DNA of 63,556 nucleotides, counting the filler, from Squatina squatina (taxonomy: Eukaryota), in NCBI GenBank assembly GCA_031763465.1. It is 4 parts of 4 records of this genome, joined end to end, with 100 filler letters (N's around TTAATTAATTAA, not from the genome) between each part and the next. Parts side by side here need not be neighbours in the genome. Positions count along the whole stretch, not along the records: positions 51,514 to 63,556 come from JARFOE010000016.1; 3 more parts are not named here. One strand, written 5' to 3'. This document shows, piece after piece, positions 59,157 through 59,327 of this stretch. The position numbers and the translations under genes were made by a program. The notes below the pieces were generated by a model. It saw nothing but the letters and a program-made list of their open reading frames with translations, was not told the DNA's origin and did not search any database. Each line of letters opens with the position of its first letter. Within the stretch, counting starts at the first letter, position 1.

Positions 59157-59327
59157 GATCGCTCTTGGGTGACAAAACACGTATGACTGAACTTTCAAGG
59201 GATATGAATGCTTATATCCGTCCATCACCCACTTTGGGTACATTGGGAGGAGTAACCAGAACCACACAGGAAGCGATTATTTTATGCGAAGGGGCAGGAT
59301 ATGATCTAATTCTTGTAGAAACTGTCG
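59157..59327 (+). other. MMAA: Isolated intact MMAA exon (171 nt, phase 1/1) nested in the last MKRN2 intron
   Basis: tttcAG acceptor, GTAAGT donor; (G)[56 protein letters not shown](G) carries the MeaB/MMAA GDKTRM, RPSP..GTLGG and ETVG motifs. No other MMAA exon seen in the window. Confidence 0.93.

Follow-up and report, generated by a model that had tools for sequence, protein, structure and literature searches.

Exon 4 of MMAA, a MeaB-family GTPase gene, stands intact on the + strand at 59157-59327 of the window, the 63,556-nt stretch of joined Squatina squatina sequence analysed here. The exon is genuine, as confirmed by its splice sites, its Pfam assignment and its protein and DNA alignments. 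The contig on which it is found together with the last MKRN2 exon (57956-60104) is probably, though by no means surely, a chimera of MMAA and MKRN2 sequence. A recent copy of an MMAA fragment inserted into MKRN2 is the reading that comes second, and how credence is divided between these two is a matter of judgement rather than measurement.

Identity of the MMAA exon and its substitutions

In the window sequence the acceptor ...ttccaaatttcAG ends at 59156 and the donor GTAAGT begins at 59328. The 171 nt between them run from phase 1 to phase 1, as does exon 4 of vertebrate MMAA, and an open frame from 59159 encodes 56 amino acids. The translation matches Pfam MeaB with 76 bits (E 3e-21), against a curated cut-off of 23.1, and a human MMAA structure with E 5e-29. 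The top match among 591 is the MMAA protein of Heptranchias perlo, with which 54 of 56 residues are shared (96% identity). The sequence-only reading, which had recognized the 171-nt exon with its AG and GTAAGT sites and its open frame, is upheld on each count. The exon limits are orthologous in that a relative's spliced MMAA contig spans 59155-59329 and DNA contigs span the intron flanks. A processed retrocopy is rejected because the exon is flanked by sequence of intron 3 and of intron 4, which aligns to the relatives' MMAA introns; the same conclusion had been drawn earlier from the retained flanks.

Unlike a vertebrate MMAA gene, the window holds no other MMAA exon near this one. When 12 MMAA proteins were searched against the window, whose scaffold has gaps, every other match had E > 0.3. 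The remark of the sequence-only reading that no neighbouring MMAA exons are visible is thereby borne out, and a complete or interleaved MMAA gene is not supported by the sequence present in this gapped scaffold. A Pfam scan of the 598 window frames of at least 42 aa gave matches above cut-off only to MeaB, zf-CCCH, a kinase exon and DUF326, the last of which falls on a tandem repeat, and revealed no further foreign exon. An exact look-up of two window-encoded frames in the protein collection found neither.

Comparison was made with contigs from six related-shark read sets, out of 21 public sets of other species among which the largest share of the window's words was 0.22. The exon is covered in the DNA sets X2, X7, X8 and X12 (four organisms, three studies); X1 (55% read) covers neither the MMAA nor the MKRN2 piece and X12 is without the MKRN2 piece, absences that prove nothing. 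Divergence from X7 is 10.5% for the MMAA flanks, and 10.7% and 11.3% for MKRN2 introns. Since the flanks diverge like the MKRN2 introns, the piece is orthologous to the relatives' MMAA and an old MMAA paralog is rejected. The earlier suggestion of an interleaved paralog remnant is, for the same reason, not supported, and no other MMAA exon in the window speaks for it.

Against X7 the exon shows five listed differences in 171 nt (four against X12), a count from which differences near the ends may be hidden. Two are synonymous, and the other three bases give N37Q and V51I. A sequence neutral over the whole branch would be expected to show 11.1 differences (P(<=5) 0.035), and one under purifying selection 5.3-6.6 in all. 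By these counts, selection of the MMAA type appears to have acted on the exon along most of the branch, if not all of it. Both replacements fall on the window's own branch, for which 0.3-1.0 non-synonymous changes would be expected under constraint (P(>=2) 0.04-0.26) and on which the ratio of non-synonymous to synonymous changes is 3:1 or higher. N37Q comprises two base changes in one codon (59267-59269). Position 37 aligns to Asn225 of human MMAA, a residue that PMC5415723 assigns to exon 4, and the window has Gln in place of this near-invariant Asn. Asn is found at position 37 in 189 of 190 animal homologs, that is in 119 of 120 longer ones (the best 120 of 591, the exception being Lys) and in 70 of 70 short matches, and none of these homologs carries Gln there. 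Bacterial homolog structures have Arg at this position, and 7 of the 13 named cartilaginous fishes have private changes of their own at near-invariant sites of the exon. No literature on MMAA Asn225 was found. N37Q leans slightly to relaxed selection without deciding for it.

Two loci in related sharks and the junction in the window

On the MMAA side, one contig per set aligns to the window from 58853 or 58923 to 59347-59351 in all four DNA sets that cover the exon, and continues for 150-166 nt that are unlike the window. On the MKRN2 side, all three sets that cover it (X2, X7 and X8, from two studies) have a second contig, whose alignment begins at 59359-59360 and reaches 60104, with 146-181 nt unlike the window ahead of 59359/59360. 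The MMAA and MKRN2 pieces are always on different contigs in the relatives. Each set has just one contig over the exon, at a single-copy MMAA locus, and among the matches listed the relatives' MKRN2 sequence preceding 59360 has no second piece in 57380-60104. X11 is a set presumed to be RNA, with splicing at GT..AG. Its last two MKRN2 exons directly abut (57657 to 59781) in a contig of 3,344 nt, and the MMAA exon is on a separate contig of 2,264 nt. Since the X11 organism is without the MMAA-MKRN2 join, its skipping of the exon is uninformative on exon use in the window's species. Contig depth in X8 is 6.5 for MMAA and 2.4-2.8 for MKRN2, and the two are similar to each other in X2 and X7; the X8 figures may be a contig-depth quirk.

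Judged by the lengths of the chromosomes that bear the named proteins, MMAA and MKRN2 are on different chromosomes in five of the five cartilaginous fishes with both visible: 198.6 versus 65.7 Mb in Heptranchias, 277.3 versus 169.8 Mb in Scyliorhinus canicula, 385.9 versus 229.0 Mb in S. torazame, 181.2 versus 114.1 Mb in Chiloscyllium punctatum and 375.7 versus 257.7 Mb in Narcine. No MMAA motif occurs in the 120 listed MKRN2 matches and no MKRN2 motif in the listed MMAA matches. The MMAA-to-MKRN2 junction of the window is, to judge by these contigs, absent from the relatives examined; the sequence-only reading had proposed a check of other chondrichthyans for the same arrangement, and the relatives carry its two halves apart. 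No account of an MMAA exon in MKRN2 was found in literature searches on MMAA with MKRN2, on MMAA in sharks and on MKRN2 with RAF1 in sharks.

The MMAA-derived piece is larger than the exon and extends over at least 58853-59351. The 3' part of MMAA intron 3 (58923-59156, + strand) is covered by the same contigs that carry the exon in X2, X7, X8 and X12. The first 24 nt of intron 4 (59328-59351, + strand), which end with a run of eight T, are aligned by the relatives' MMAA contigs as far as 59347-59351. Two LINE remnants precede these segments, both on the + strand. The old remnant at 58038-58550, which we take to be L2-like, is marked by a high depth of relatives' matches and is ~70% similar to other copies in the window. 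The LINE 3' remnant at 58553-58921, presumably CR1-like, is a resident of MMAA intron 3, since the X2 MMAA contig aligns over 70 nt of its tail, from 58853.

Within the 2.1-kb contig a single MMAA-to-MKRN2 junction is seen, at 59352-59359. The flank alignment that the sequence-only reading had proposed as a way to the breakpoints thus locates the right junction but no left one, none being found upstream inside the contig. The 3' part of the last MKRN2 intron (59360-59780, + strand) follows, and is represented by separate contigs in X2, X7 and X8. The junction zone is unaligned to either parent over 8 nt in X7 and X8 and 7 nt in X2. These nucleotides come after a T run of seemingly variable length (the X12 alignment ends 4 nt earlier), and the alignment method does not extend over end indels, as is evident at the LINE tail, where 73-77 nt are unaligned in X8 and X12 and aligned in X2. 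Because alignment stops at end indels, the eight unaligned nucleotides need not represent filler or microhomology.

A 9-nt perfect inverted repeat is centred on the junction (59335-59375), with one arm from each parent (59335-59343 and 59367-59375) and a fold z of -2.69. Comparable repeats occur at 265 of 55,966 window positions (0.47%), and this one was noticed after several patterns had been inspected. The junction also has a 7-nt direct repeat, of a kind shown by 3.1% of positions. A Helitron or piggyBac reading of the hairpin and the TTAA words, based on general features of such elements, was dropped as AT-rich chance without a terminal motif. The depth of relatives' matches is 4-25 in the junction bins and at most ~25 in the 453-nt stretch to the MKRN2 exon, versus 10^4-10^6 in the LINE remnants. 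The junction and the stretch up to the last MKRN2 exon are without high-copy repeat, in agreement with the earlier description of this stretch as repeat-free. No poly(A) tail follows the MMAA piece, a T run and AT-rich sequence standing there instead. The junction shares no word of at least 8 nt with 57660-58930, so no target-site duplication is seen in the visible sequence, and a left junction may sit in the gap. At 57818 the contigs of three relatives lose alignment with 25-41 nt remaining and the window continues for 37 nt, which could reflect an indel or a left breakpoint. This drop, together with the uncovered segments 57819-57855 and 57956-58016, was rejected as evidence of a left breakpoint, given that the method also fails past the LINE-tail indel (73-77 nt).

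MKRN2, RAF1 and the scaffold

The fourth from last MKRN2 exon, inside which its contig begins, is at about 51514-51650 and the third from last at about 53664-53774. The penultimate exon (57513-57657, + strand) encodes the last CCCH finger, ends in phase 0 and is 100% identical to residues 335-383 of shark MKRN2; a relative's spliced contig joins it to 59781. The last coding exon (59781-59963, + strand), with 60 codons and a stop, matches residues 381-443 at 94%. A RAF1 kinase exon for human residues about 398-457, recognized by its kinase domain match, lies on the - strand at 62439-62618, and a tail-to-tail orientation of MKRN2 and RAF1 is the usual arrangement described in PMC3022923. In X11 the last MKRN2 exon is ~2.2 kb long, from which the 3' UTR likely continues through 60205-61534 towards RAF1.

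The MMAA exon shares its contig with the last MKRN2 exon, which starts 453 nt downstream on the same strand with no N between them, just as the sequence-only reading had reported. Its further claim that the exon lies inside the last MKRN2 intron holds on the downstream side, which is contiguous, but not in the same way on the upstream side. There the 100-N gap at 57856-57955 is the sole link of the contig with the upstream MKRN2 exon to the MMAA-bearing contig, and since this gap precedes the exon, its placement within the intron depends upstream on scaffolding. The window consists of 37 contigs (N50 1,907 nt, longest 5,324 nt). Of the gaps between them, 27 measure exactly 100 N and six have other lengths, and a further three joins are spacers of the form 44N-12nt-44N. 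The 12 nt at 37177-37188 and 51458-51469 are TTAATTAATTAA, with 44 N on each side; a third 12-nt spacer piece is at 21702-21713. A linker with a TTAATTAATTAA core is described in PMC3019230 as an artificial six-frame stop spacer for the concatenation of ordered scaffolds.

No exon for MKRN2 residues 1-253 was found in the upstream 51 kb (window 1-51513), and between the RAF1 exon and the MKRN2 end (60105-62438) no kinase motif or domain was found for RAF1 residues 458-648. The RAF1 exons for these residues probably lie in a 100-N gap. Given the missing MKRN2 and RAF1 exons, several exons must be concealed in one or more of the plain 100-N gaps, and a gap of this kind is no sign of close physical linkage. 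Window 1-51513 contains no other gene exon above the Pfam cut-off, and the contig at 51514 opens inside an MKRN2 exon straight after a spacer join. Tandem arrays in this part of the window include a minisatellite at 44194-45714 (76 copies of a 20-nt unit, 84% matches), an array at 39932-40127 (51-nt unit x3.8) inside a LINE piece, and an array of 20/40-nt units at 6604-6878.

Origin of the MMAA-MKRN2 join

Of the origins offered by the sequence-only reading, misassembly and DNA duplication both remain, with misassembly ranked first. In a chimeric contig, the left part would come from the normal MMAA locus of the animal (intron 3, exon 4 and the first bases of intron 4) and the right part from the MKRN2 end. 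Their fusion at 59352-59359 would likely date from library preparation, as a chimeric molecule, or from assembly, as a join over a short overlap. The contig would presumably have been placed at MKRN2 owing to the last exon, with a 100-N gap to its left, and this placement would make the exon look stranded in an intron, where it would be idle while still serving MMAA on another chromosome. The two halves of the contig match two separate loci in the relatives, with one sharp switch between them. The single junction, the constrained exon, the weak scaffold and the unlinked genes make a chimera the best reading, one in which no extra event is needed. If so, the window shows how a clean unique-to-unique misjoin in a short-read draft ordered by reference can mimic exon shuffling, and cautions that MMAA could be mistaken for a broken gene in the assembly.

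Chimeric library fragments that join distant loci are documented (PMC8458033, PMC10908179). Like the window, the artefacts described there join two distant unique loci once, with no reciprocal or second junction visible, and have short complementary sequence near the join. In contrast, they are reads of human tumour or FFPE libraries, whereas the present join is known from an assembled contig, and they keep the complementary stretch once, as an overlap, whereas both arms of the inverted repeat are retained in the window. Further points speak against a chimera. The junction is in unique sequence, so that repeat collapse, the commonest kind of misjoin, does not apply; a misjoin of that kind was rejected at the depth of the junction bins. 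A chimeric molecule must outlive both true continuations, which needs thin coverage. N37Q and V51I are both present where at most about one non-synonymous change was expected under constraint, the inverted repeat centred on the junction is not predicted by random ligation, and the 598 frames scanned hold no other foreign exon.

A genuine DNA-level event is a serious but less probable alternative, in which repair of a double-strand break inserted a recent, lineage-specific copy of an MMAA fragment into the last MKRN2 intron. The copy would measure no less than 0.5 kb and might reach or exceed 1.4 kb. Its left junction would fall within the 100-N gap or upstream of it, an intact parent MMAA would exist elsewhere, and the copy would be drifting as an unused pseudo-exon. 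A junction in unique sequence within an ungapped contig suits such an insertion, and the direct and inverted repeats at the junction could be repair scars. A Gln unique among 190 homologs and the excess of non-synonymous changes on the window's branch also point this way. N37Q is, however, weak evidence, estimated at ~2 to 1: Gln is the chemically nearest residue, drift is no likelier than constraint to yield it, and bacteria carry Arg. The contig shows no second junction, and a copy that had been neutral for the full length of the branch would be expected to have diverged more than this exon has, so that a copy must be young.

The same kind of event is known in human as class 2 templated sequence insertions (TSIPs; PMC5110952). 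Like those described there, the window piece is unspliced, has a source on another chromosome and shows neither poly(A) nor a target-site duplication; a donor at a distant locus is indicated by the separate contigs of the relatives and the different chromosomes in 5/5 species. Class 2 TSIPs differ in being defined by a junction pair and an intact donor, whereas one junction is visible here, and experimental inserts of 73-414 bp compare with a window piece of at least 499 bp. A real copy would add to the known cases of distant templated insertion, and be notable only as a whole exon with working splice sites placed in sense orientation in another gene's intron. It could represent the earliest stage in the making of a regulatory exon. 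Even if real, it would be a stranded fragment, unreadable in the MMAA frame within MKRN2.

The reading frames bear on any use of the exon in MKRN2. Phase 0 at the end of the upstream MKRN2 exon does not match phase 1 at the start of the MMAA exon. On inclusion the MMAA exon is therefore read in another frame, with a stop at nt 28-30 of 171 (after nine codons). The MMAA frame spliced into the last MKRN2 exon meets a stop after 11 codons. Since both frames stop, an MMAA-MKRN2 fusion protein is not possible by simple splicing, and since inclusion in MKRN2 reads another frame, the conservation of the exon comes from service in MMAA and not from use in MKRN2. That the join is real and the exon, with both its splice sites, serves as a poison exon of MKRN2, a lineage-specific off-switch, is improbable. 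Its stop would lie 141 nt before the last junction, and the last 60 residues would be lost or nonsense-mediated decay would follow. By the 50-55 nt rule, a transcript with the exon included would be degraded. Such an off-switch would have come to MKRN2 in one piece, from a metabolic gene that resides on a different chromosome.

Transduction, also raised by the sequence-only reading, is poorly supported and very unlikely. It would have the upstream, presumably CR1-like element read through and carry the MMAA exon to MKRN2. As in LINE-mediated 3' transduction and class 1 TSIPs, a LINE 3' end is directly upstream of the unique flank, on the same strand and resident at the donor locus. Unlike in those, a T run takes the place of a poly(A) tail, no shared word of target-site length is seen at the junction, and the element is short, decayed and, at ~70% likeness to other copies, too old for a young event.

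A real translocation that joined the MMAA 5' half to the MKRN2 3' end in this animal is less likely still. It would account for the single junction and for the shared orientation of the two pieces, but it would break two conserved genes, and as the fusion is out of frame, with a stop after 11 codons, only a rare heterozygous or somatic event is possible.

Least likely of all is a shared adjacency, with exon 4 truly in the MKRN2 intron of these sharks, ~300 nt further from the MKRN2 exon in the relatives, and trans-spliced or interleaved into MMAA. In its favour, the loose ends of the MMAA and MKRN2 contigs have a combined length of 331 nt both in X2 and in X8 (296 nt in X7), as if abutting, the inverted repeat spans the junction and only one contig per set covers the exon; against this, a matching total for one pair out of three would be no rarity by chance (an estimated ~1 in 12), the X8 depths, rough as they are, separate MMAA from both MKRN2 pieces, the window is without any other MMAA exon, and whole MMAA gene models lie off the MKRN2 chromosome in all five species, the closest named one included.
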